32,903 nt of DNA, taken from IMG/VR virus record IMGVR_UViG_2778261576_000007; one strand, 5' to 3'. The position numbers were made by a program, and so were the translations under genes. Position 1 is the first letter of the stretch. Each line of letters begins with the position of its first letter. This document shows, piece by piece, positions 3,312 to 32,903 of the stretch. The notes beneath the pieces were generated by a model that was given only the letters and a program-made list of their open reading frames with translations, ran no database searches and was not told the origin of the DNA. The stretch is from a virus (taxonomy: Duplodnaviria; Heunggongvirae; Uroviricota; Caudoviricetes).

Positions 3312-3583
3312 GTATTCGTATTGAAATTGGCGAACGTTATGTCGTTACCAGTGACAGCTTTCAGTTTATTCTCCACGAGAAAAAGAGAGCGGAAAGCGGT
3401 AAAAACGCCGGTCAGGAATGGCTGGCGGTGGTTGGTTATTACCCGAAATTAAGCCAGCTCGTTTCCGGCCTGATGCATCACGATATTCTGACCGGAAGCG
3501 CAAAGTCTTTTGCTGATTTAAACGCGCAGGTTGAGCAACTCAGCAGGCGTTGTTCAGAGGCTTTTGGCTCATATGGCCGTTAA
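3308..3583 (+). CDS. Early hypothetical protein (P2 orf83 position)
   Basis: ORF translationally coupled to its neighbours (ATGA overlap at 3308-3311). Confidence 0.7.
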   Translation: MSIRIEIGERYVVTSDSFQFILHEKKRAESGKNAGQEWLAVVGYYPKLSQLVSGLMHHDILTGSAKSFADLNAQVEQLSRRCSEAFGSYGR

Positions 3584-5852
3584 AGCCTCCGGGCGTTTTG
3601 TCCCTCCGTCAGCATTTGCTGCAGGCACCGGTAAGGCGTTTACCGGTGCTTATGCATGGAACGCGCCACGCGAGGCCGTCGGGCGCGAAAGACTCCTTAC
3701 ACGTGACGAGATGCGTCAGGTGCAAGGTGTTTTATCCACGATTAACCGCCTGCCTTACTTTTTGCGCTCGCTGTTTACTTCACGCTATGACTACATCCGG
3801 CACAATAAAAGCCCGGTGCACGGGTTTTATTTCCTCACATCCACTTTTCAGCGTCGTTTATGGCCGCGCATTGAGCGTGTGAATCAGCGCCATGAAATGA
3901 ACACCGACGCGTCGTTACTGTTTCTGGCAGAGCGTGACCACTATGCGCGCCTGCCGGGAATGAATGACAAGGAGCTGAAAAAGTTTGCCGCCCGTATCTC
4001 ATCGCAGCTTTTCATGATGTATGAGGAACTCTGCGATGCCTGGGTGGATGCGCATGGCGAAAAAGAATCGCTGTTTACGGATGAGGCGCAGGCGCATCTG
4101 TATGGTCATGTTGCTGGCGCTGCACGTGCTTTCAATATTTCCCCTCTCTACTGGAAAAAATACCGTAAAGGACAGATGACCACGAGGCAGGCATATTCTG
4201 CCATTGCCCGTCTGTTTAACGATGAGTGGTGGACTCATCAGCTTAAAGGCCAGCGTATGCGCTGGCATGAGGCGTTACTGATTGCTGTCGGGGAGGTCAA
4301 TAAAGACCGTTCTCCTTATGCCAGTAAACATGCCATTCGGGATGTGCGTGCACGCCGCCAGGCAAATCTGGAATTTCTTAAATCGTGTGACCTTGAAAAC
4401 AGGGAAACCGGCGAGCGCATCGACCTTATCAGTAAGGTGATGGGCAGTATTTCTAATCCTGAAATTCGCCGGATGGAGCTGATGAACACCATTGCCGGTA
4501 TTGAGCGTTACGCCGCTGCAGAGGGTGATGTGGGGATGTTTATCACGCTGACCGCGCCGTCAAAGTATCACCCGACACGTCAGGTCGGAAAAGGCGAAAG
4601 TAAAACCGTCCAGCTTAATCACGGCTGGAATGATGAGGCATTTAATCCAAAGGATGCGCAGCGTTATCTCTGCCGTATCTGGAGCCTGATGCGCACGGCA
4701 TTCAAGGATAATGATTTACAGGTCTACGGTTTGCGAGTCGTCGAGCCACACCACGACGGAACGCCGCACTGGCATATGATGCTTTTTTGTAATCCACGCC
4801 AGCGTAACCAGATTATCGAAATCATGCGTCGCTATGCGCTCAAAGAGGATGGCGACGAAAGAGGAGCCGCGCGAAACCGTTTTCAGGCAAAACATCTTAA
4901 CCAGGGCGGTGCTGCGGGGTATATCGCGAAATACATCTCAAAAAACATCGACGGCTATGCACTGGATGGGCAGCTCGATAACGATACCGGCAGACCGCTG
5001 AAAGATACTGCTGCGGCTGTTACCGCATGGGCGTCAACGTGGCGCATTCCGCAATTTAAAACGGTTGGACTGCCGACAATGGGGGCTTATCGTGAACTAC
5101 GCAAATTGCCTCGCGGCGTCAGTATTGCTGATGAGTTTGACGAACGCGTCGAGGCTGCTCGCGCTGCCGCAGACAGTGGTGATTTTGCGTTGTATATCAG
5201 CGCGCAGGGTGGGGCAAATGTCCCGCGCGATTGTCAGACTGTCAGGGTTGCCCGTAGCCCGTCGGATGACGTTAACGAGTACGAGGAAGAAGTCGAGAGA
5301 GTGGTCGGCATTTACGCGCCGCATCTCGGCGCGCGTCATATTCATATCACCAGAACGACGGACTGGCGCATTGTGCCGAAAGTTCCGGTCGTTGAGCCTT
5401 TGACTTTAAAAAGCGGCATCGCCGCGCCTCGGAGTCCTGTCAATAACTGTGGAAAGCTCACCGGTGGTGATACTTCGTTACCGGCTCCCACACCTTCTGA
5501 GCACGCCGCAGCAGTGCTAAATCTGGTTGATGACGGTGTTATCGAATGGAATGACCCGGGGGTCGTGAGGGCGCTCAGGGGTGCATTAAAACACGGTCGG
5601 AGAACGCCAAGTCGTCAGCAAAGAAACGGAAGCCCGTTAAAACCACATGAAATTGCACCATCGGCCAGACTGACCCGGTCTGAACGATTGCAAATCACCC
5701 GTATCCGTGTTGACCTTGCTCAAAACGGTATCAGGCCGCAGCGATGGGAGCTTGAGGCGTTAGTACGCGGTGCGATCGTCAATTACAATGAAAAGCAATT
5801 TTCATATCCTAGTGTAGATGAGTGGAGTGGGTTTTCTGGTTATTCAGAGTAA
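3573..5852 (+). CDS. A: Replication initiator A, HUH rolling-circle endonuclease
   Basis: HUH motif (PHWHMMLF) and tandem-tyrosine motif (AGYIAKYISKN) are visible. The preferred start is the ATG at 3573 (MAVKASGRF...), giving 759 aa; the track ORF starts further upstream at 3531 and overlaps orf83. Confidence 0.92.
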   Translation: MAVKASGRFVPPSAFAAGTGKAFTGAYAWNAPREAVGRERLLTRDEMRQVQGVLSTINRLPYFLRSLFTSRYDYIRHNKSPVHGFYFLTSTFQRRLWPRIERVNQRHEMNTDASLLFLAERDHYARLPGMNDKELKKFAARISSQLFMMYEELCDAWVDAHGEKESLFTDEAQAHLYGHVAGAARAFNISPLYWKKYRKGQMTTRQAYSAIARLFNDEWWTHQLKGQRMRWHEALLIAVGEVNKDRSPYASKHAIRDVRARRQANLEFLKSCDLENRETGERIDLISKVMGSISNPEIRRMELMNTIAGIERYAAAEGDVGMFITLTAPSKYHPTRQVGKGESKTVQLNHGWNDEAFNPKDAQRYLCRIWSLMRTAFKDNDLQVYGLRVVEPHHDGTPHWHMMLFCNPRQRNQIIEIMRRYALKEDGDERGAARNRFQAKHLNQGGAAGYIAKYISKNIDGYALDGQLDNDTGRPLKDTAAAVTAWASTWRIPQFKTVGLPTMGAYRELRKLPRGVSIADEFDERVEAARAAADSGDFALYISAQGGANVPRDCQTVRVARSPSDDVNEYEEEVERVVGIYAPHLGARHIHITRTTDWRIVPKVPVVEPLTLKSGIAAPRSPVNNCGKLTGGDTSLPAPTPSEHAAAVLNLVDDGVIEWNDPGVVRALRGALKHGRRTPSRQQRNGSPLKPHEIAPSARLTRSERLQITRIRVDLAQNGIRPQRWELEALVRGAIVNYNEKQFSYPSVDEWSGFSGYSE

Positions 5853-6092: not shown

Positions 6093-8576
6093 TTAACGAG
6101 GGTTTCGCGTATAGGTTTCAACTATGTCTGATGCACGTAATTTACATGTGATCAATTGTTCTCTTATAAATATCTCATCGTGTCGTTTATCACTTGTACA
6201 AATGGCCGTGATAAAACTGAGGATAGATGCTTTAAAACGTTCAAGATCATTTATGGTCATTATTCGAGACCCTTCGTTTAGTGTTGCGGCATATTCAGGC
6301 ATGTTAGAGTGATGTATCATTATAGGTGTGGCGGTAGCAGTTTGATCATACATGTTTCTGAACCATGCACCCGACCCATTTAACTGATTGCAGTCATGCT
6401 TACTTATTCTTTCTGCGGTTGCTCCATTTTTGCATTCAATTACTAGATAATTGTTTTCTCCCATTGCCCATAAATTGTCAGGTCCTTTACCTGTATCATT
6501 TTCTGGCCGTTGGCTACGAAAACCGATCAAATATGCAACTTTTTCGATAGCATCTTCGAAGGGATTCGATGTGCCCTCGGAGAAAATAAGGTTTTCTATT
6601 ATTGAATTAGTATGCACAACGACTTGATTCGCCGATTCAAAATTACTTCTGAGATAGGAGCTACATTCCCTGGCCTGTTCAAGTGCCGCACCATTAAGTC
6701 TATTATATGTTACGCCGATTAGTGGTTTTAATACCCGATAGTTATCGTTTGATGCAGACTGAAGCAATATCTGAGCTTCAGATTTGTCATATAAGTTTAC
6801 ATATTCCGCAGCATGTTCTTTTAGATAACCCTTATAAACTTTGTCAGCTGTACTACTATCATTTTTTAGAGTTAAAGCGGCTTGTTGAAACATATTTCGT
6901 GATGCGAAGTCATATGCCAATCTTTTGTTTATAGTATGCTGGTCAATCTGCTTATTTTCCAATGTTAAGCCAGTCAATATACCTTTGCTTTTTGAGACCC
7001 AGTCAGAATTGCGTAACAGACAATAATCAAGAGCACCTTTGATTGAATCAATAGTTGTATCCGGCAGTATCGATACCAATTGCTGTGAAAGTTGAATTTG
7101 TGCTTTCGTTGCTGGAGAAAACCTTTCTAAGGAGGAGCCAAGGAAAACAGCGCCATTTAATGCTTTGCCAAGTAAGATCACTCCGCAGAAGTCGTCGCTT
7201 GATCTCACTCCTCGCCCCATTCCTTGTTCAATTTTCTGGATAATTTCATCTTTGGTTTTTTCGCTTCCAAGCAATAAGCTTTGTGAGACTTTATCTATTA
7301 GTCTACGAACGTCAGGAAGTCCATCTATTACTAATAGACGACATGCGGTATTTGGTAAATCAATACCATCATATCTATTAACTAGGACTACTAAGCCAAC
7401 ATGTTGTGTCCTTAATTCTTGTACACCTTGATAAATTGTATTTTTATCTAATATTCTGTCTGCAACATCTTGCCAAAATCTAGTTCTGTAATCGGATGGT
7501 ACAATTACAACAACATTATGTTTGGAGGATATCTCCTTGCACATAGCTTTGATATCTACATCAGAAAGACTAGGGTTTATAACCTGAGGCATTAGTATCA
7601 TTCTATCACCAATATCACCAATTGTTTTTGGTGTTATCGGATTAGAGAGTGATTCATCCGTTATTCCGAAGTGGCTCGCTAGAATGGATTCATCGACAAG
7701 AGTAGCTGTCATGAATATTTTTCTTCTTGCGTTTGATAGGCTTGGGATCATTTGGATTGGTATGCAATGAGGTGATATCTCTATTTTGGAAGCACTTACA
7801 ACGCATTTCGATAATATTAGATTGTCTTTTATTAATGGCCATTTGAAACTCAAGTCATCATGGTCTTTATTTTCTAACAAGATTGTCATTATATCATTTA
7901 TGCTTTCTTGCCATTTCCAAAATGGAACTCTCACATAAGCATTTCTATCGCCGGATTTTATCTCTAGTGTTTTTGCACCAGCTTGTGTCATTAGTGAATT
8001 TTCAAAAATTCTGAATAATTTATCATAGGCAGGGTTATTTTTTTGAATGCTAATGGAGAATTGTTCTTCAATTGAAGAAAGGCAAGCGTGAGCATCGTCA
8101 ATTATTATAGAACCTATTGGTATTTTTTGTCCATCATCTCCAACGCCAAATGCAGAACGTCCATTAACCACTTTGAATATATTTGTAACTAAAATTTCTT
8201 TACCTGCAATAAATTTGGGGGACCTCTCATCTTGAGTTACAGGTATACCAAGTTGATTAGCCTCCAAAACCACTTGCTCAACTAGATAGTTGTCAGGAAC
8301 AACATATACAGCGGGACCTTCTCCTTCATTTATACAGCTTTTAAGAATGATTAACCCAACTGAAGTTTTACCGCTTCCGGTATTCATTTTTATTACATTG
8401 GTTGGGCTTCTCCTTGCTTCATACCATTTTTCCCAGACCTCTGATTGCACATCTCGAGGGTATTGAAATTTGGTGTCTTTGCTCGGTAGAGCTGTAAATA
8501 TATCTCGTGGTGGAATCGCTGTGTCGCTATTTACACTGGGCGAAAGCTTGGTTAAATCAAGGAAAAAACCAGACAT
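6093..8576 (-). CDS. Cargo protein: SF2 helicase fused to a C-terminal PD-(D/E)xK-like nuclease (827 aa); candidate anti-phage defence protein
   Basis: Helicase motifs: I NTGSGKTS, II IIIDDAHA, III FMTATL, VI QGMGRGVR. Near the C-terminus, GPDNLW followed 12 residues later by LVIECK fits a PD-(D/E)xK nuclease. About 38% GC in a sampled segment against about 50-55% in the backbone. Occupies the old/tin position between A and cos. RBS AAGAGGA precedes the ATG at 8576. Confidence 0.6.
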   Translation of the reverse strand: MSGFFLDLTKLSPSVNSDTAIPPRDIFTALPSKDTKFQYPRDVQSEVWEKWYEARRSPTNVIKMNTGSGKTSVGLIILKSCINEGEGPAVYVVPDNYLVEQVVLEANQLGIPVTQDERSPKFIAGKEILVTNIFKVVNGRSAFGVGDDGQKIPIGSIIIDDAHACLSSIEEQFSISIQKNNPAYDKLFRIFENSLMTQAGAKTLEIKSGDRNAYVRVPFWKWQESINDIMTILLENKDHDDLSFKWPLIKDNLILSKCVVSASKIEISPHCIPIQMIPSLSNARRKIFMTATLVDESILASHFGITDESLSNPITPKTIGDIGDRMILMPQVINPSLSDVDIKAMCKEISSKHNVVVIVPSDYRTRFWQDVADRILDKNTIYQGVQELRTQHVGLVVLVNRYDGIDLPNTACRLLVIDGLPDVRRLIDKVSQSLLLGSEKTKDEIIQKIEQGMGRGVRSSDDFCGVILLGKALNGAVFLGSSLERFSPATKAQIQLSQQLVSILPDTTIDSIKGALDYCLLRNSDWVSKSKGILTGLTLENKQIDQHTINKRLAYDFASRNMFQQAALTLKNDSSTADKVYKGYLKEHAAEYVNLYDKSEAQILLQSASNDNYRVLKPLIGVTYNRLNGAALEQARECSSYLRSNFESANQVVVHTNSIIENLIFSEGTSNPFEDAIEKVAYLIGFRSQRPENDTGKGPDNLWAMGENNYLVIECKNGATAERISKHDCNQLNGSGAWFRNMYDQTATATPIMIHHSNMPEYAATLNEGSRIMTINDLERFKASILSFITAICTSDKRHDEIFIREQLITCKLRASDIVETYTRNPR

Positions 8577-19178: not shown

Positions 19179-20087
19179 ATGCCGATTATCGACCTGAACC
19201 AGCTACCCGCACCGGATGTGGTCGAGGAGCTGGACTTTGAAACCATTCTCGCCGAACGCAAGGCGACACTGATTTCCCTTTACCCGGAAGACCAGCAGGA
19301 GGCGGTCGCCCGTACCCTGACGCTGGAATCTGAGCCTCTCGTCAAACTGCTGGAGGAAAATGCTTATCGTGAGCTTATCTGGCGTCAGCGTGTGAATGAG
19401 GCCGCACGGGCGGTGATGCTGGCCTGTGCTGCCGGTAATGACCTTGATGTGATTGGTGCCAATTACAACACCGCGCGCCTTATTATCACCCCGGCAGATG
19501 ATTCGACCCTCCCGCCGACACCGGCCGTGATGGAATCTGACACCGATTATCGTCTGCGTATTCAGCAGGCGTTTGAAGGTTTAAGCGTCGCCGGGTCGGT
19601 GGGGGCCTATCAGTATCATGGTCGAAGTGCCGACGGGCGTGTCGCAGATATCTCTGTCACCAGTCCTTCTCCGGCCTGCGTCACCATCTCTGTGCTGTCA
19701 CGTGAAAATAACGGTGTGGCATCCGAAGACCTGCTGGCCGTGGTACGTAACGCCCTGAATGGCGAGGACGTCAGACCGGTGGCCGACCGCGTGACCGTAC
19801 AGTCTGCCGCCATCGTTGAATACCAGATAAACGCCACGCTTTACCTTTACCCTGGTCCCGAAAGCGAACCCATCCGCGCTGCCGCCGTGAAAAAACTGGA
19901 AGCGTACATCACGGCACAGCACCGGCTGGGGCGCGACATCCGTCTGTCTGCCATTTATGCCGCTTTGCATGTGGAAGGCGTGCAGCGTGTCGAACTGACT
20001 GCACCGCTGGCCGACATCGTGCTCAACAGTACGCAGGCGTCTTTCTGTACCGAATACCGCGTCGTGACCGGAGGCTCGGATGAGTGA
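19179..20087 (+). CDS. J: Baseplate wedge protein J (302 aa)
   Basis: Synteny and size. Confidence 0.88.
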   Translation: MPIIDLNQLPAPDVVEELDFETILAERKATLISLYPEDQQEAVARTLTLESEPLVKLLEENAYRELIWRQRVNEAARAVMLACAAGNDLDVIGANYNTARLIITPADDSTLPPTPAVMESDTDYRLRIQQAFEGLSVAGSVGAYQYHGRSADGRVADISVTSPSPACVTISVLSRENNGVASEDLLAVVRNALNGEDVRPVADRVTVQSAAIVEYQINATLYLYPGPESEPIRAAAVKKLEAYITAQHRLGRDIRLSAIYAALHVEGVQRVELTAPLADIVLNSTQASFCTEYRVVTGGSDE

Positions 20088-20610
20088 TTCGCGACTGCTG
20101 CCGACCGGCTCATCACCGCTTGAAATTGCTGCCGCAAAAGCCTGTGCGGAAATTGAAAAAACGCCGGTCAGGATTCGTGAACTGTGGAACCCGGACACCT
20201 GCCCGGCAAATCTGCTGCCGTGGCTGGCGTGGGCGTTTTCGGTCGACAGGTGGGATGAAAAGTGGCCGGAAGCGACCAAACGCGCCGTTATCCGCGATGC
20301 CTATTTCATCCACTGTCATAAGGGCACTATCGGTGCAATCCGGCGTGTGGTGGAGCCGCTGGGCTATCTCATCAACGTGACGGAGTGGTGGGAAACCAGT
20401 GACCCGCCGGGCACCTTCCGGCTTGATATTGGTGTACTGGAAAGTGGCATCACAGAGGCAATGTATCAGGAAATGGAACGGCTGATTGCTGATGCCAAAC
20501 CTGCAAGCCGTCACCTTATTGGCCTGAACATTACCCGGGACATTCCCGGCTACCTGTTCGCCGGTGGTGTGGCTTACGACGGCGATGTAATTACGGTTTA
20601 CCCCGGATAA
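20080..20610 (+). CDS. I: Baseplate protein I (176 aa)
   Basis: Synteny and size; overlaps the J stop. Confidence 0.88.
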   Translation: MSDSRLLPTGSSPLEIAAAKACAEIEKTPVRIRELWNPDTCPANLLPWLAWAFSVDRWDEKWPEATKRAVIRDAYFIHCHKGTIGAIRRVVEPLGYLINVTEWWETSDPPGTFRLDIGVLESGITEAMYQEMERLIADAKPASRHLIGLNITRDIPGYLFAGGVAYDGDVITVYPG

Positions 20611-20620
20611 GTGAGGAATA

Positions 20621-22939
20621 ATGAGCACAAAATTCAGAACCGTTATCACCACTGCCGGTGCAGCAAAGCTGGCAGCGGCAACCGCGCCGGGAGGGCGGAA
20701 GGTCAACATTACCACGATGGCCGTCGGGGATGGCGGTGGTAAATTGCCTGTCCCGGATGCCGGACAGACCGGGCTTATCCATGAAGTCTGGCGACATGCG
20801 CTGAACAAAATCAGCCAGGACAAACGAAACAGTAATTATATTATCGCAGAGCTGGTTATTCCGCCGGAGGTGGGCGGTTTCTGGATGCGTGAGCTTGGCC
20901 TGTACGATGATGCGGGAACATTAATTGCCGTGGCGAACATGGCCGAAAGTTATAAGCCAGCTCTTGCCGAAGGCTCAGGGCGTTCGCAGACCTGTCGCAT
21001 GGTCATCATCGTCAGCAGTGTGGCCTCAGTGGCGCTGACCATTGACACCACAACGGTGATGGCGACGCAGGATTACGTTGATGACAAAATTGCAGAGCAT
21101 GAACAGTCACGACGTCACCCGGACGCCTCGCTGACCGCAAAAGGTTTTACTCAGTTAAGCAGTGCGATCAACAGCACGTCTGAAACACTGGCCGCAACGC
21201 CGAAAGCGGTAAAGGCCGCGTATGATCTTGCTAACGGGAAATACACTGCGCAGGATGCCACCACAGCGCGAAAAGGCCTTGTCCAGCTCAGTAGCGCCAC
21301 CAACAGCACGTCTGAAACGCTCGCCGCAACACCAAAAGCGGTAAAGGCAGCATATGACCTTGCTAACGGGAAATACACTGCACAGGACGCCACCACAGCG
21401 CGAAAAGGTCTTGTCCAGCTCAGTAGCGCCACCAACAGCGATTCTGAAACGCTTGCAGCAACGCCAAAGGCGGTTAAGACAGCGTATGACCTTGCTAACG
21501 GGAAATACACTGCGCAGGATGCCACCACGGCGCGAAAAGGTCTTGTCCAGCTAAGTAGCGCCACCAACAGTGATTCTGAAACCCTCGCGGCAACGCCAAA
21601 AGCAGTGAAGTCTGCCTATGACAATGCTGAAAAACGTCTTCAGAAAGATCAGAACGGTGCGGATATTCCGGGAAAGGATACCTTCACGAAAAATATCGGA
21701 GCCTGTCGTGCTTATAGCGGCGCTTTGAGCACTGAAGCCGGAAACTGGACAACCGCTCAGTTTATTGAATGGCTGGATTCCCGTGGTGCATTTAATCATC
21801 CGTACTGGATGTGCAAAGGCTCCTGGTCATATGCAAATAACAAAATCATTACGGATACCGGATGTGGTGATATCCACCTGGCTGGTTGTGTCGTCGAGGT
21901 CATGGGAACTAAATCTGCAATCACTATCCGAGTGACCACGCCGACAACATCAAGCGGTGGCGGTACAACCAGCGCGCAATTCACTTACATTAATCATGGG
22001 GACGGCTACTCCCCCGGCTGGCGTCGTGACTGGAATCGTCAGGGCGACGCAATGACCGGAACGATTAATCAGGATGGCGGAAGCCAGAATGCCTATATGT
22101 CTACGGCCTTATGTTCAGGCACCAGAGGCGGCAAAAAATATCTCAGAAAGTTTCGTGGTGGAGAAGGAGACACTATCTGGCATGAAACAGTACAGGGCGG
22201 GGTAGTTCGCTGGGCGACTGGTAATACTGATGCTCAGGAAGAATTATCACTCAGCTCCGCTTATGGTCTCCGTTCAAGAGGTGAGATTACATCAAGCAGT
22301 GCTAATGGTCTGCGCATTGCTTATGGCAATTATGGATTCTTTATCAGGAATGATGGCAGCAGCACTTATTTTATGTTGACTAAATCAGGTGACAGATTAG
22401 GCACTTATAATAATTTAAGACCACTGATTATAAATGATGCCACGGGTGCTGTATCAATGGGGCATGGCCTGAGTGTTACTGGTGATATTGCCTCAAGTAC
22501 CAAAGTACGTGCCGGTAGCGGGAAAAAATTCACGGTCAGCAGCAGTAATACATCCACGAAGGAAGCCGCATTCAATTTGTGGGGAAACTCAAGTCGTCCG
22601 GTGGTGGCTGAATTAGGTGATGATGCAGGCTGGCATTTTTACAGTCAGAGAAATACAGATAACAGCATCACTTTTGCTGTTAACGGGCAGGTATCACCAT
22701 CTAACTATAGTAATTTTGATTCACGCTATGTCCGGGATATCCGGCTTGGTGGTGCTGCCACATACAAACCTGCGAACAATGGCATGACATGGACACATCA
22801 GGCACCGTCCGGGTGTGTATATTCCGGCATTATTGTTCAGGATACCGGCTCAAACTCTGCCGATAACATTGGTGGCGTATATTACAGACCGGTGCAGAAA
22901 TACATTAACGGGACATGGTATAACGTGGCACAGGTATAA
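20621..22939 (+). CDS. H: Tail fibre protein H (772 aa) with internal tandem repeats and an AT-rich distal domain
   Basis: Conserved N-terminal part, four 44-aa repeats, and a distal part that is visibly more AT-rich. It is longer than the 669 aa I recall for P2 H. Confidence 0.88.
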   Translation: MSTKFRTVITTAGAAKLAAATAPGGRKVNITTMAVGDGGGKLPVPDAGQTGLIHEVWRHALNKISQDKRNSNYIIAELVIPPEVGGFWMRELGLYDDAGTLIAVANMAESYKPALAEGSGRSQTCRMVIIVSSVASVALTIDTTTVMATQDYVDDKIAEHEQSRRHPDASLTAKGFTQLSSAINSTSETLAATPKAVKAAYDLANGKYTAQDATTARKGLVQLSSATNSTSETLAATPKAVKAAYDLANGKYTAQDATTARKGLVQLSSATNSDSETLAATPKAVKTAYDLANGKYTAQDATTARKGLVQLSSATNSDSETLAATPKAVKSAYDNAEKRLQKDQNGADIPGKDTFTKNIGACRAYSGALSTEAGNWTTAQFIEWLDSRGAFNHPYWMCKGSWSYANNKIITDTGCGDIHLAGCVVEVMGTKSAITIRVTTPTTSSGGGTTSAQFTYINHGDGYSPGWRRDWNRQGDAMTGTINQDGGSQNAYMSTALCSGTRGGKKYLRKFRGGEGDTIWHETVQGGVVRWATGNTDAQEELSLSSAYGLRSRGEITSSSANGLRIAYGNYGFFIRNDGSSTYFMLTKSGDRLGTYNNLRPLIINDATGAVSMGHGLSVTGDIASSTKVRAGSGKKFTVSSSNTSTKEAAFNLWGNSSRPVVAELGDDAGWHFYSQRNTDNSITFAVNGQVSPSNYSNFDSRYVRDIRLGGAATYKPANNGMTWTHQAPSGCVYSGIIVQDTGSNSADNIGGVYYRPVQKYINGTWYNVAQV
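21139..21625 (+). repeat. About 132-bp (44-aa) tandem repeats inside H, roughly 3.7 copies
   Basis: The repeated unit (K/R)G(F/L)(T/V)QLSSA(I/T)NS(T/D)SETLAATPKAVKxAYDLANGKYTAQDATTAR is visible in both DNA and protein. Boundaries are approximate. Confidence 0.8.
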
Positions 22940-22942
22940 TTT

Positions 22943-23470
22943 ATGCAGCATTTGATAAATATAACCGCGGGTAATCCAAAAACGGTTGAACAATATCAAT
23001 TGACAAAGGGCTTTGATGTTGTCTGGTTTTTTACAGAAGATGGTAAGAACTGGTACGAAGAACAAAAGTATTTTGCTGATGACACGATAAAAATAGCGTA
23101 CGACAAGGATAATATTATCCGCTATGTGGAAAAAGATGTGACAGCTATCAGACCAGATGGATTAAGTGTGGTTGAAGTGGCGGATATTACTGCTAACCGA
23201 CGGGCGGACATTTCAGGGAACTGGATGTTTAAGGACGGCAAAGTGATTAAACGCATTTATACGGCAGAGGAATTGCAGCAGCAGGCAGAAAACCGGAAAG
23301 CCAGACTTCTTGCAGATGCTGAATCCGTGATTTTGCCACTGGAGCGCGCGGTCAGACTGAACATGGCAACAGATGAGGAGCGTAGCCGACTGGAAGCATG
23401 GGAGCGTTACAGCGTTCTGGTCAGTCGTGTGGATCCTGCAAATCCTGAATGGCCGGAAATGCCGCAATAA
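22943..23470 (+). CDS. G: Tail fibre assembly chaperone G (175 aa)
   Basis: Immediately downstream of H; AT-rich like the distal part of H. Confidence 0.82.
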
Positions 23471-23519
23471 GTTGTATGAGCTTACATATCTATTGCATAG
23501 AGTAAAGCCTAATCTGACA

Positions 23520-23543
23520 GTCCGCTCTGTGCCAAGAGCGGAC
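23520..23543. terminator. Inverted repeat between convergent G and cargo gene (possible bidirectional terminator without a U-tract)
   Basis: GTCCGCTC (23520-23527), 8-nt loop, GAGCGGAC (23536-23543). Neither strand has a clear T-run after it. Confidence 0.3.
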
Positions 23544-23597
23544 ATTATAGATGGTATATGTAGAAAGTGAACTTGCGTCGATTTTATGATCTAGCAG

Positions 23598-24407
23598 TCA
23601 CTTAATTATTGGATAACTCACACATGTATGGCCGTTGCTTATAGCATACATTTGGTTTCCCTTAAGATTTACAAATGGAAATGTCGTATACTCATAATTT
23701 ACAGATGTCATGTTAAATGTAAGGAATTTATCTTTAAGTTCTAATTTTGTTGAGTGTGCAGGGTATATTCCTTCATTTTTAATTGTGATAATAAAACCGA
23801 TAGGAAAAAAATGTAAAGCACAAATAAATGCTACATGTCCTTCGTTCATAAATGCTACACTTTGAGCTGATATGTGCATTCTGTGTGGGTAAAACCAGTA
23901 GTAAATATCATGAGTCTCCTCAAAACTTGGATTCTTACCCAAAACATAATCTTTTAAAGGTGTATAGAAGGGGCTATCTACGGGTTCTTTTTTACAATCT
24001 TCAACTGAAGTTGCCGATAGCACGTGTCCAATCATAGCCTTAGTGAAAGATATGCTATCAAAAGGTATTCTAATGAATGGATATACATTCATACCATTCA
24101 TATATTGACTCAACTGTTCTTTAAAGGACTTTGCTACATTTTCAATTGCAACGTCGAGTCCACCTAACACCTTATTGTTACAGTGGCTGCAAATGGTTTT
24201 GAAATAAGAGCCGTTTTTAGCATTTAATGGTTTAACTGGTTCCTGAACACCAAAAAATTCGCTAACTGTTTTCTGAAGAACAGGACCTAAGGTTATGGCA
24301 CACTTTGGAGGAACATGATCTTTTGTGAGGAAGTCATATTTTCCACAAATATTGCAATAACCTTTAGTAATGCCGTTGTGCTTCCATCGTTCACTAATTT
24401 GCGTCAT
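23598..24407 (-). CDS. Cargo protein with N-terminal HNH (His-Me finger) nuclease motif and an uncharacterised C-terminal domain (269 aa)
   Basis: CNICG ... DHVPPK ... N ... CSHCNNK fits the HNH pattern. About 27% GC in a sampled segment. The preferred start is the ATG at 24407 with GAGGGA 7 nt upstream; the track ORF begins at a TTG at 24422. Occupies the Z/fun position between G and FI. Confidence 0.55.
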   Translation of the reverse strand: MTQISERWKHNGITKGYCNICGKYDFLTKDHVPPKCAITLGPVLQKTVSEFFGVQEPVKPLNAKNGSYFKTICSHCNNKVLGGLDVAIENVAKSFKEQLSQYMNGMNVYPFIRIPFDSISFTKAMIGHVLSATSVEDCKKEPVDSPFYTPLKDYVLGKNPSFEETHDIYYWFYPHRMHISAQSVAFMNEGHVAFICALHFFPIGFIITIKNEGIYPAHSTKLELKDKFLTFNMTSVNYEYTTFPFVNLKGNQMYAISNGHTCVSYPIIK

Positions 24408-24542
24408 TTTTTGTTCCCTCAATAGTATAAGCTATCTATACATTTTTTAATCCTATCAAAGATACAACTTAACGTCAGGGAAATGATAGTGTTTTGGCTA
24501 TGTAAATTGTCAGTCGGAAAATGAGTGAGTACAAATCAGGAC

Positions 24543-24570
24543 AGGCGGGCAGATTGCCCGCCTTTTCTTT
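24543..24570 (+). terminator. Rho-independent terminator (plus strand) upstream of the FI promoter region
   Basis: Stem GGCGGGCA (24544-24551), short loop, stem GCCCGCC, then TTTTCTTT (24563-24570). Confidence 0.6.
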
Positions 24571-31541: not shown

Positions 31542-32903
31542 TCACTTACCGTGGGGGTTACGCGTGGTTTCCCCGGAGAAATTACGCATCAGCAGCGCGT
31601 AATTTAGCTCAAGATCCTGCGGGACCGGGATCCACACAGTATAACCATCGCCCGGTGCGACCGGCATTGCTTCGCCTTTGGCGTTTTCCATATGCTCAAG
31701 GGTAAAGTTAATGTTCCCTTGCGGCGTCATCAGCTCAAGGCTGTCGCCAACGGAGAATTTATTTTTCACCGCTACCGCCGCGAGGTCGCCCTTGCGCTCA
31801 CCGGTAAACTCACCAACAAACTGCTGGCGGTCAGAAACTGAATAACCGTATTCGTAGTTCTGATAATCGTCGTGAGTATGACGACGCAGGAAACCTTCGG
31901 TATAGCCACGATGCGCCAGACCTTCCAGAGTTTCCAGCAGGCTGGTATCGAATGGTTTTCCCGCAGCTGCGTCATCGATAGCTTTACGGTAAACCTGCGC
32001 GGTGCGTGCGCAATAGTAGAAAGATTTTGTACGACCTTCGATTTTCAGCGAATGCACGCCCATTTTGGTCAGGCGTTCAACGTGGGCGATAGCGCGCAGA
32101 TCTTTCGAGTTCATGATGTAAGTGCCGTGCTCATCTTCAAACGCAGTCATATACTCGCCCGGACGCTGAGCTTCTTCGATCATAAACACTTTGTCGGTTG
32201 GCGCGCCGATGCCCAGCGTCGGCTCAACATTTTGCACCGGAATCGGCTCGTACTTGTGCACGATGTTGCCAACGTCATCTTCTTTCCCTTCCTGGACGTT
32301 GTACTCCCAGCGGCAGGCGTTGGTGCAGGTGCCCTGGTTCGGGTCGCGCTTGTTGATATAGCCAGAGAGCAGGCAGCGACCGGAGTAGGCCATGCACAGC
32401 GCACCGTGAACGAAGATCTCGATCTCCATATCCGGCACCTGATTACGGATCTCTTCAATCTCTTCCAGCGACAGCTCGCGAGAGAGGATCACGCGGGTCA
32501 GTCCCATTTGCTGCCAGAATTTCACCGTCGCCCAGTTCACGGCGTTAGCCTGCACCGAGAGGTGGATCGGCATTTCAGGGAAGTGCTCGCGCACCAGCAT
32601 AATCAGCCCTGGATCGGACATAATCAGCGCATCCGGCCCCATCTCCACCACCGGTTTCAGGTCACGGATAAAGGTTTTCAGCTTGGCGTTGTGCGGTGCA
32701 ATGTTGACCACGACATAAAACTTTTTCCCCAGCGCGTGGGCTTCATTGATGCCGAGCTGAAGATTTTCGTGGTTGAATTCGTTGTTGCGCACACGCAGGG
32801 AGTAACGCGGCTGGCCCGCATAAACAGCATCTGCGCCATAAGCGAAAGCGTAACGCATATTTTTCAGCGTTCCCGCCGGGGAAAGGAGTTCCGGTTTAAA
32901 CAT
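31542..32903 (-). CDS. yegQ: Peptidase U32-family protein YegQ (453 aa)
   Basis: Complete ORF beginning MFKPELLSPAGTLKNMRYAFAYGADAVYAGQPRYSLR... It lies upstream of cyaR on the same strand, matching the E. coli yegQ-cyaR arrangement as I recall it. Confidence 0.8.
   Translation of the reverse strand: MFKPELLSPAGTLKNMRYAFAYGADAVYAGQPRYSLRVRNNEFNHENLQLGINEAHALGKKFYVVVNIAPHNAKLKTFIRDLKPVVEMGPDALIMSDPGLIMLVREHFPEMPIHLSVQANAVNWATVKFWQQMGLTRVILSRELSLEEIEEIRNQVPDMEIEIFVHGALCMAYSGRCLLSGYINKRDPNQGTCTNACRWEYNVQEGKEDDVGNIVHKYEPIPVQNVEPTLGIGAPTDKVFMIEEAQRPGEYMTAFEDEHGTYIMNSKDLRAIAHVERLTKMGVHSLKIEGRTKSFYYCARTAQVYRKAIDDAAAGKPFDTSLLETLEGLAHRGYTEGFLRRHTHDDYQNYEYGYSVSDRQQFVGEFTGERKGDLAAVAVKNKFSVGDSLELMTPQGNINFTLEHMENAKGEAMPVAPGDGYTVWIPVPQDLELNYALLMRNFSGETTRNPHGK

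Follow-up and report, generated by a model that had tools for sequence, protein, structure and literature searches.

In phages P2 and Mu, the assembly proteins G and U are needed for the folding or trimerisation of the cognate tail fibre (PMC7460101, PMC9608196). The Mu chaperone is composed of a variable N-domain, which binds the fibre tip, and a conserved C-domain, which trimerises (PMC9608196). The GpH fibre protein of phage L-413C is a hybrid of four regions, including a P2-like N-terminus, a mosaic middle part different from P2, and a C-terminal part that is distantly P2-like (PMC7460101). The H proteins of P88 and pro147 carry two hypervariable regions, HR1 and HR2, toward the C-terminus, as well as a domain resembling T4 gp34, and exchange of the 31-aa HR2 alters the host range of P88 (PMC5285337).

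Here, we analysed a 32,903-nt stretch of viral DNA (IMG/VR record IMGVR_UViG_2778261576_000007; hereafter the window), with particular emphasis on gene H (20621..22939, plus strand), an open reading frame (ORF) encoding a tail fibre protein of 772 aa with matches to PF12571, PF21446 and, four times, PF03406, and gene G (22943..23470, plus strand), encoding a tail fibre assembly protein (chaperone) of 175 aa with a match to PF02413. The two genes belong to a complete P2-like (Peduovirus) prophage, where they close the V-W-J-I-H-G late operon; the sheath, gpD, portal, gpA and integrase were all found elsewhere in it. A homologue of gene I (20080-20610, 97% DNA identity to P2) is followed by H, as in P2, and H resembles P2-type gpH proteins in its PF12571 collar, its I-H-G position and the PF03406 units after the collar; NCBIfam contained no model for it. 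H is longer than P2 gpH (772 vs 669 aa), as the preliminary description had stated. The exact H allele of the prophage is common in E. coli, and clusters with 98-100% identity to H occur on hundreds of E. coli/Shigella contigs. By analogy with the P88 HR2 swaps and the L-413C GpH binding assays, we infer that H binds a receptor on the host surface and plays a role in host range. Our main reading, to which we assign a probability of about 0.85, is that H is a block-assembled trimeric fibre and G a chaperone of the Mu U type, that the tip and the N-domain of G form one cassette, and that the repeat array of H is old.

Along H, all on the plus strand, the blocks follow in the order collar, repeats, three distal blocks, tip and C-terminal end. 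The conserved P2-type N-terminal tail-collar (baseplate attachment) domain (aa 1-167; 20621..21121), matched by the full PF12571 profile at aa 1-151 (E 3e-58), would dock the fibre on the baseplate; aa 1-251 share 95% amino acid identity with P2 H, and the DNA from gene I to 21346 is 97% identical to P2. The four tandem 132-nt/44-aa units that follow (21122..21649) are of the type known in Pfam as the phage tail fibre repeat (PF03406) and would serve as a shaft spacer. Distal block 1 (aa 344-475; 21650..22045; GC 0.515) is common to P1 Sv', Mu S' and lambdoid side tail fibres, with 82-85% amino acid identity to P1 Sv' and the lambdoid proteins. Distal block 2 (aa 476-626; 22046..22498), which has the lowest GC in H (GC 0.453, GC3 0.364), includes a T4 gp34-type trimerisation domain at aa 541-604 (PF21446, E 3.5e-26) and matches Mu S (5YVQ_A, 260-343) and T4 gp34 (4UXE); homology to GMS190 stops near aa 626. 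Distal block 3 (aa 627-710; 22499..22750) is P2-H-like and ends in the motif NFDSRYVRDIRLG (22712-22750), which is kept in the window, P2, Yersinia phage vB_YpM_115 (Yp115), N41, ETEC1734 and L-413C. These three shaft blocks would have been drawn from a pool common to Mu S/S', P1 S', lambdoid side fibres and T4 gp34. They are followed by a short hypervariable tip (aa 711-755; 22751..22885), designated type B (GAATYKPANNGMTWTHQAPSGCVYSG...) and presumed to be the receptor-contact region, and by the conserved C-terminal end (YRPVQKYINGTWYNVAQV; 22886..22939, including the stop codon), which is nearly invariant across all compared H proteins and Mu S.

The preliminary description had counted about four 44-aa repeats in H, and PF03406 indeed matched four times (E 7.6e-78), with the units, in protein register, at 21122-21253, 21254-21385, 21386-21517 and 21518-21649. 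Tandem Repeats Finder reported a period of 132 nt with 3.4 copies at 21169-21622 (89% matches, score 691), and a second repeat search placed the array at 21139-21628. At the protein level, copies 2 and 3 differ in 2 of 44 residues and copies 1 and 2 in 7, whereas copy 4 deviates in its last 9 residues, which make up the junction to the next domain. It is this near-identity of the protein copies that speaks for a recent expansion of the array in this lineage, which had been proposed and which belongs to a highly improbable reading in which, moreover, everything from about 22200 to the end of G arrived in one event as one low-GC block from a foreign, AT-richer phage. In the DNA, however, 13-53 of 132 nt differ between copies (11-30%), mostly synonymously, with dS of 0.36-1.7 and dN of 0.014-0.21, as compared with dS of 0.07-0.22 between positional orthologues, and each copy lies only 2-4% in DNA from its same-position counterpart in Yp115, P2 or ETEC1734. 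A copy pair with at most 2% DNA divergence was present in only 2 of 49 genes. High dS between copies and positional orthology with other phages show that the copies are old, and that the array is an old structure kept by selection on the protein.

The number of repeats varies among relatives, from one to six copies in clean 44-aa steps when counted by HMM: among the 120 closest homologues, 3 copies were present in 33, 4 in 75, 5 in 10 and 6 in 3, while P2 H has two copies and N41 one. Variants of one backbone that differ in length share 95-100% identity outside the array. Copy number shifts occasionally through unequal crossing-over, and such changes would alter the length of the fibre.

Alignments confirmed that the H-G pair lacks collinearity with its P2 counterpart. 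Beyond 21346, a position that falls within repeat copy 2, P2 matches only 22523-22731 (73% DNA identity, in distal block 3) and 22885-23549 (76%). Yp115 keeps 98-100% identity as far as about 22700, falls to 36-70% across the tip and the early part of G (36-42% in the tip itself) and then returns to 93%; ETEC1734 is 92% identical over 21139-22731. N41 shows 95.6% identity over 22710-23531, with an identical tip, and the rest of its H is unrelated, while fiAA91-ss matches 20621-21996 and 22709-23382 only, and homology to OU784750 also ends at 21996. Junctions in H are found at about 21346-21740, 21996-22080, 22480-22520 and 22709/22710, and sequence comparison shows that H consists of several separately exchanged blocks. 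At about 22200, where a single breakpoint had been suggested, none of the relatives breaks, and identity continues across at 92-100%.

The 17 other late genes of the prophage have a mean GC of 0.570 (sd 0.023) and a GC3 of 0.661, and the H-G segments have a GC of 0.555 (H N-terminus), 0.538 (repeats), 0.477 (21650-22709), 0.478 (tip) and 0.453 (G). All but one of the 500-nt H/G intervals starting at or after 21421 lie below all 109 intervals from the other late genes in GC, the exception (21721-22220) being under 99% of them, and the minima are located at 22200-22500 and 22900-23200. The AT-richness previously described from distal H through G is therefore real as a drop to 0.45-0.48, but its onset lies at about 21600 rather than 22200, and low GC does not hold throughout G, the last third of which has a GC of 0.545.

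The lowest GC from about 22200 onward, together with a fall of GC3 beyond that of total GC (0.36-0.51 vs 0.66), is what favours the import of a single AT-rich block; since GC3 drops more than total GC, the shift is one in the DNA and not in amino acid content alone. However, the relatives show no break at 22200, at least four junctions cut up the low-GC stretch, the 3' third of G has recovered, and P2 displays the same GC step (0.56 to 0.476 to 0.438) over non-homologous sequence, as Yp115 does. The step is family-wide; it marks no junction at 22200 and is not evidence of the acquisition by this prophage that had been suggested from it. The near equality of the unrelated distal sequences of P2 and the window in GC (0.476 and 0.477) could also result from functional constraint, either through a fibre rich in Ser, Thr, Asn and Gly or through slow translation that aids chaperone-assisted folding, in which case the low GC would not stem from horizontal origin and the mosaicism would be incidental. 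We consider this improbable: GC3 is down by 0.15-0.30, beyond total GC, for which amino acid content is insufficient; a GC of 0.54 is found in the repeat array and the conserved 3' part of G, although both are likewise fibre or chaperone sequence; and the blocks common to Mu, P1 and lambdoid phages directly attest to horizontal movement. Low GC in distal H and G is thus characteristic of the exchangeable pool as a whole, P2 included, and not the trace of a recent event here.

Gene G starts 4 nt after the stop codon of H, matches PF02413 (Caudo_TAP; E 6.8e-35, 120.5 bits vs a cut-off of 22.1) and aligns over its full length with Mu U (5YVQ_B, E 2e-82). It conforms to the Mu U, P2 G and lambda Tfa type in having a variable N-domain and a conserved C-domain and in lying directly downstream of the fibre gene. 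The variable part comprises aa 26-75 (23018-23167), where identity to the P2/Yp115 type per 25-aa block is 0.4-0.68, and the last ~50 aa are conserved (0.88-0.96 at the end); against N41, all blocks are at 0.96-1.0.

The exchangeable tip-plus-chaperone cassette (22710..23400, plus strand) is composed of H aa ~697-772 and the variable N-domain of G. At its left edge, similarity sets in at 22709, 22710 or 22718 in 22 Peduovirus phage records, which match the cassette at 93.6-97.1%; at its right edge, within G, identity to Yp115 is back to 0.86-0.94 from about 23350. The conserved flanks are NFDSRYVRDIRLG in H and the 3' part of G. That tip and chaperone move as a unit had been proposed from the window itself, and the survey of IMG/VR bore this out: among the 80 best matches to the window's G, 79 loci had a full-length readable end of H, and all 79, each with the window's G type, carried the window's tip, the last 67 aa of H being at least 93% identical to those of the window on at least five backbones (H lengths of 772/728/860, 919/917, 709/665/621, 749 and 736/692 aa). 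These 79 loci probe whether a type-B G predicts a type-B tip, and the converse comes from four phages only (P2, Yp115, ETEC1734 and L-413C). The window, Yp115, N41 and L-413C together make up a two-by-two reassortment in which both backbones occur with both tips, and G tracks the tip each time. The tip and the variable N-domain of G are co-inherited as one cassette of ~0.7 kb between two conserved sequences.

Such co-inheritance would also be expected from adjacency alone if any chaperone of the family could fold any tip, given that the cassette measures only ~0.7 kb and has conserved sequence at both sides, and co-expression of L-413C G gave no better yield or solubility of GpH (PMC7460101). 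We regard this as rather unlikely, since the variable aa 26-75 of G fall in the domain that touches the fibre tip in Mu (PMC9608196), and since the conserved island at 22886-22999 could allow the tip and G to be separated by crossover, which was seen in 0 of 79 loci. In the cassette that we favour, the variable N-domain of G would clamp the fibre tip and the conserved C-terminal helices would drive trimerisation, as the Mu structures suggest, so that a tip would have to travel with its matching chaperone domain; the conserved flanks would supply the places of crossover for homologous recombination.

To the right, the fibre module is bounded by a variable cargo island (23550..24483), which lies outside it in the slot of fun(Z) in P2; P2 homology ends at 23549 and resumes at 24484, and the distance from G to FI ranges from 1080 to 2908 nt over 54 loci. 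The island of the window holds an ORF on the minus strand (23598..24407) of 269 aa from its ATG, or 274 aa from an upstream TTG at 24422, with a GC of 0.345. The encoded protein is rare. PADLOC, Pfam and NCBIfam returned nothing for this ORF, PHROGs only a family without assigned function; its predicted fold, a confident model, had no match among PDB or BFVD structures, and the protein had no profile match to PDB sequences. Among the HNH (His-Me finger) profiles, HNH_5 scored 12.3 bits, below its cut-off of 27.5, and HNH-family hits in 23 of 36 relatives were weak, with E no better than 0.0077; C21, D30, H31, C73, C76 and N77 never vary in this protein family, and the conservation of C18 is 90% or more. 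The protein might represent a novel phage-exclusion factor, encoded by a single gene in the fun(Z) slot. The P2 defence hotspot described by Rousset et al. (2022) is not the slot after G but the old/tin locus next to cos, which in the window contains a PDC-S28 protein (6093-8576). A scan for promoters and terminators around the island found sites no more numerous than in shuffled sequence, and the sole strong hairpin nearby (24543-24563) belongs to conserved sequence that precedes the sheath gene.

A broader reading, which we hold to be doubtful as a whole, goes beyond these observations: the array as a tunable spacer, its distal edge as a crossover site, the divergence of the copies as selected and, separately, the 269-aa protein as an exclusion protein. 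Copy number, with variants on at least three backbones, may set the reach of the fibre to the depth of the host surface layer, separately from tip specificity. The conserved distal edge of the array may double as a crossover site at which P2-, Mu- and P1-type distal blocks are traded, and synonymous divergence with near-identical protein may itself be selected, stabilising the array against deletion.

The feature that had been singled out is an ordinary one: H is a block-built P2-type fibre, its parts are routinely traded among phages, the pattern is real and well described in P2-like phages, and its block structure follows rules known for P2, L-413C, P88, Mu and P1. The practical gain is the exact map of this allele, including the start (22709/22710) and end (~23400) of the cassette, its flanking motifs and the independently moving blocks, and this is the knowledge needed for designed retargeting of P2-type particles or tailocins. 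The survey also offers a clear natural case in which repeat number varies while the backbone stays fixed, and this could be used to address the relation of fibre length to adsorption.

The block architecture of H agrees with the published descriptions of P2, L-413C, P88 and Mu, and the window differs from each of them in particular ways. P2 gpH/gpG (AF063097) share with it the operon position, the 44-aa repeat, the junction motif, the C-terminal end and the GC step, and the two G proteins are of equal length and 74% identical; in contrast, P2 has two repeat units rather than four, its residues from the repeats to about aa 530 are unrelated to aa ~340-628 of the window, and its tip is of type A (TRVVQ...GEVDGDD), the last 144 aa being 59% identical overall. 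The P2-like Yersinia phages vB_YpM_115, 117, 46 and P37 have the backbone of the window (98.3% DNA identity over 20621-22749) with four repeat copies in the same order, but carry a type-A tip and a type-A G, with an H of 764 aa and 36-70% identity across 22750-23350. L-413C H (913 aa) has one repeat, an N41-like backbone and a type-A tip, and aligns with the window only at aa 1-207 (84%) and over the last 89 aa (46%), whereas its G is 76.6% identical; the tip of the window is not that of this plague-diagnostic phage, the receptor of which is known, as L-413C has both a type-A tip and a type-A G. The tip of the window (aa 711-755) occupies a position that, judged from its place in the protein, is equivalent to HR2 of P88, the experiments having been performed on the P88 allele, and only 55% of the query was matched in pro147, at 87% identity. 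Mu S and S' with U and U' (PDB 5YVQ, 8JU3, 9KI1) have one PF03406-type repeat just ahead of the variable part; aa 335-487 of the window closely match Mu S' (8JU3) 179-332, aa 544-628 and the tip match Mu S, and the alignment of G with Mu U spans all 175 residues. By inverting its G segment, Mu alternates between two sets of tip and chaperone, and the relative ETEC1734 has such an arrangement. The window, in contrast, carries a single set: in the interval from G to the sheath gene, the ORF list and Pfam revealed neither a serine invertase nor an inverted second tip set, only the 269-aa ORF, which has no Pfam recombinase or fibre domain. The N-terminal baseplate domain of H is of the P2 type and not of the Mu type.

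Across its 32.9 kb, the window represents a complete P2-like (Peduovirus) prophage. Its genes include an integrase at 1-1014 on the minus strand, replication gene A at 3531-5852, and those for the portal, sheath and gpD. The U32-family peptidase gene that closes the right end (31542-32903, minus strand) extends beyond the window and is presumably host DNA beside the attachment site. Tail fibre gene H (20621-22939) and chaperone gene G (22943-23470, 175 aa) close the V-W-J-I-H-G late operon, and the flanks and gene order around them agree with P2. As given in the preliminary description, H is longer (772 aa) than P2 gpH (669 aa). The cos-adjacent slot described as the P2 defence hotspot, which here separates gene A from the portal gene, holds an 827-aa helicase-like protein (6093-8576, minus strand; ResIII/DEAD; GC 0.37), for which PADLOC's candidate system model PDC-S28 gives a full-length match at 1055.7 bits.

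Comparison with relatives reveals that H is a mosaic. DNA identity with P2 is 97% starting at gene I and extending to position 21346 within the second repeat copy, beyond which P2 identity is found only at 22523-22731 (73%) and 22885-23549 (76%), so full-length collinearity with P2 H/G is absent. Yersinia phage vB_YpM_115 (Yp115) is 98-100% identical up to approximately 22700, 36-70% across the tip and the beginning of G, and 93% by 23400, whereas N41, whose H is otherwise unrelated, is 95.6% identical over 22710-23531. ETEC1734 matches at 92% over 21139-22731, phage fiAA91-ss matches at 20621-21996 and 22709-23382 with nothing in the stretch between, and GMS190 homology stops near aa 626 of H. 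On foreign backbones, N-terminal similarity stops at aa 359-374 for two of them, the first represented by three length classes, and at aa 516 or approximately aa 204 for one each. Residues 344-475 share 82-85% identity with P1 Sv' and with lambdoid side tail fibres, and Mu S' (8JU3) is also a close match there. Mu S (5YVQ), which carries one copy of the tail fibre repeat directly before its variable part, matches residues 544-628 and the tip, and a T4 gp34-type trimerisation domain occupies aa 541-604. Because the relatives' matches break at several places within it, the low-GC stretch is not a single block but at least three shaft blocks plus a tip cassette, and no compared sequence breaks at approximately 22200, where the breakpoint had been placed. 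In the P2-like ETEC1734 (L004, 4826-6725), which has the H middle region in common with the window, G is followed downstream by a second assembly gene in inverted orientation, part of a fibre gene and a 'recombinase family protein'; this amounts to an invertible host-range switch of Mu/P1 style, here attached to a P2-type fibre.

The left boundary of the tip cassette lies at a conserved motif in H, NFDSRYVRDIRLG (22712-22750), after which the window tip is GAATYKPANNG..., as in N41, whereas P2, Yp115, ETEC1734 and L-413C share TRVVQ...GEVDGDD. Per 25-aa block, the window G and that of N41 are 96-100% identical, but over aa 26-75 identity to the P2 type is only 40-68%; in the final 50 residues it is 88-96% in all compared. 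Among 80 IMG/VR loci selected by the window's G type, 79 have an H end that is readable at full length, and every one of these carries the window tip (identity of 93% or more across 67 aa); the remaining locus, with a truncated end, also matches (98% over the 51 aa available). These loci span at least five different backbones. Two backbones occur with both tip types, giving a 2x2 table (window/Yp115 and N41/L-413C) in which tip and G agree in 4/4 phages, and in 22 sequenced Peduovirus records the cassette match starts at 22709, 22710 or 22718 (93.6-97.1% identity). By these alignments, G covaries with the fibre tip. In Mu, according to the statement in PMC9608196 citing North et al. 2019, binding of the fibre tip falls to the variable N-terminal domain of the chaperone and trimerisation to its conserved C-terminal helices; in phage P88, exchange of the 31-aa hypervariable region 2 altered host range (PMC5285337). 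Our comparative data are consistent with both. The proposal that tip and chaperone were acquired as a unit was thus right in kind, since the covariation fits these published results, but the unit begins at 22710 and the support is comparative, not compositional.

Distal H (GC 0.477-0.478) and G (0.453) are indeed AT-rich compared with the 17 other late genes (mean 0.570, sd 0.023), and the 500-nt windows of H/G from 21421 on, except 21721-22220, fall below all 109 windows from those genes. GC does fall, although the onset is at approximately 21600, the repeat end, instead of 22200, and the last third of G returns to 0.545. The GC3 drop (0.36-0.51 vs 0.66) exceeds the total GC drop, and therefore the signal lies in the DNA, beyond amino-acid content alone. 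This shift had been taken as a sign of acquisition, but P2 shows the same step in non-homologous sequence (gene I 0.561, H start 0.56, distal H 0.476, G 0.438), as does Yp115. The most economical explanation is a lower-GC pool of exchangeable fibre blocks common to phages; the step is uninformative on any recent event in this prophage.

The array of about four 44-aa repeats is borne out by Tandem Repeats Finder (period 132 nt, 3.4 copies, 21169-21622, score 691), by four units in the protein register (21122-21649) and by four matches to Pfam PF03406, 'phage tail fibre repeat' (E 7.6e-78). The copies are near-identical in protein, but 13-53 of 132 nt differ, chiefly at synonymous sites (Nei-Gojobori dS 0.36-1.7, dN 0.014-0.21), whereas dS is just 0.07-0.22 when a window copy is set against the corresponding one of Yp115 or P2. 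By the distance matrix, orthology is strictly positional: the four window copies lie 2-4% from Yp115 copies 1-4, P2 copies 1-2 and ETEC1734 copy 5, yet 11-30% from one another. The array is therefore older than the split of these phages, contrary to the recent expansion initially suggested, and is maintained by selection on the protein. Recent duplication does happen in other alleles, with DNA-identical copies in ETEC1734 (2 and 3) and in an 860-aa allele (two copies), but a copy pair at ≤2% divergence was found in only 2/49 complete genes. The predicted variation in repeat number held: two units occur in P2 and a single one in N41; among the 120 closest database homologues, three units occur in 33 proteins, four in 75, five in 10 and six in 3, with protein length following copy number exactly; and 80 viral contigs show 44-aa steps on three different backbones (860/772/728, 709/665/621 and 736/692). 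Length variants of one backbone keep 95-100% identity in the flanks of the array. We infer that fibre length changes with copy number.

Downstream of G, P2 homology ends at 23549 and restarts at 24484, leaving an island (23550-24483) in the slot of fun(Z) in P2. This slot, between G and the sheath gene (FI), is highly variable: the G-to-FI distance is 1080-2908 nt in 54 viral loci, and RefSeq occupants in E. coli P2-like prophages include Lit-family exclusion, SIR2 family, HNH-motif and DUF3800 proteins, with Ser/Thr kinase, FlxA-like, DUF8453 and DUF3606 proteins as further occupants. In the window it holds a 269-aa ORF (23598-24407, minus strand; GC 0.345), found in the same slot in 1/5,426 complete E. 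coli genomes and 1/80 viral loci. Its family is small and Gammaproteobacterial, with members labelled 'chaperonin' or 'metal-binding protein' in the sources, and no Pfam, NCBIfam or PADLOC model covers it. The AlphaFold model is confident (pLDDT 92.5), with no structural match in PDB or BFVD. The only functional lead is the invariant pattern C-x2-C...D-H-x-P-P...C-x2-C-N together with recurrent sub-threshold HNH_5 matches; these Cys, Asp-His and Asn residues and matches hint at a candidate His-Me finger. Homologues in Vibrio and Serratia sit at the edges of mobile elements: that of Vibrio cyclitrophicus (L006, 8001-8822) lies where a filamentous (Zot/secretin) prophage ends, adjoining a DUF2726 gene, and that of Serratia marcescens (L008, 8001-8810) adjoins gpD of a P2-like prophage remnant. 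A strong terminator-like hairpin (24543-24563, plus strand; 9-bp stem with seven G-C pairs, then a T run) occurs in the conserved region approximately 100 nt upstream of the sheath gene start codon.

The observation in the preliminary description is thus confirmed and its interpretation partly supported, being right on modular exchange and copy-number variation and wrong on recent expansion, breakpoint position and the meaning of GC. The modular H/G exchange that it read correctly is an already known phenomenon, because the allele is common, with hundreds of contigs from E. coli and Shigella bearing clusters 98-100% identical to the window H, and with 21650-23470 present at ≥80% coverage in 183/5,426 complete E. 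coli genomes, because a 2008 description already presented the fibre of L-413C as a four-region hybrid of the same type (PMC7460101), and because P2 fibre chimeras have already been engineered on such a basis (PMC9594776).
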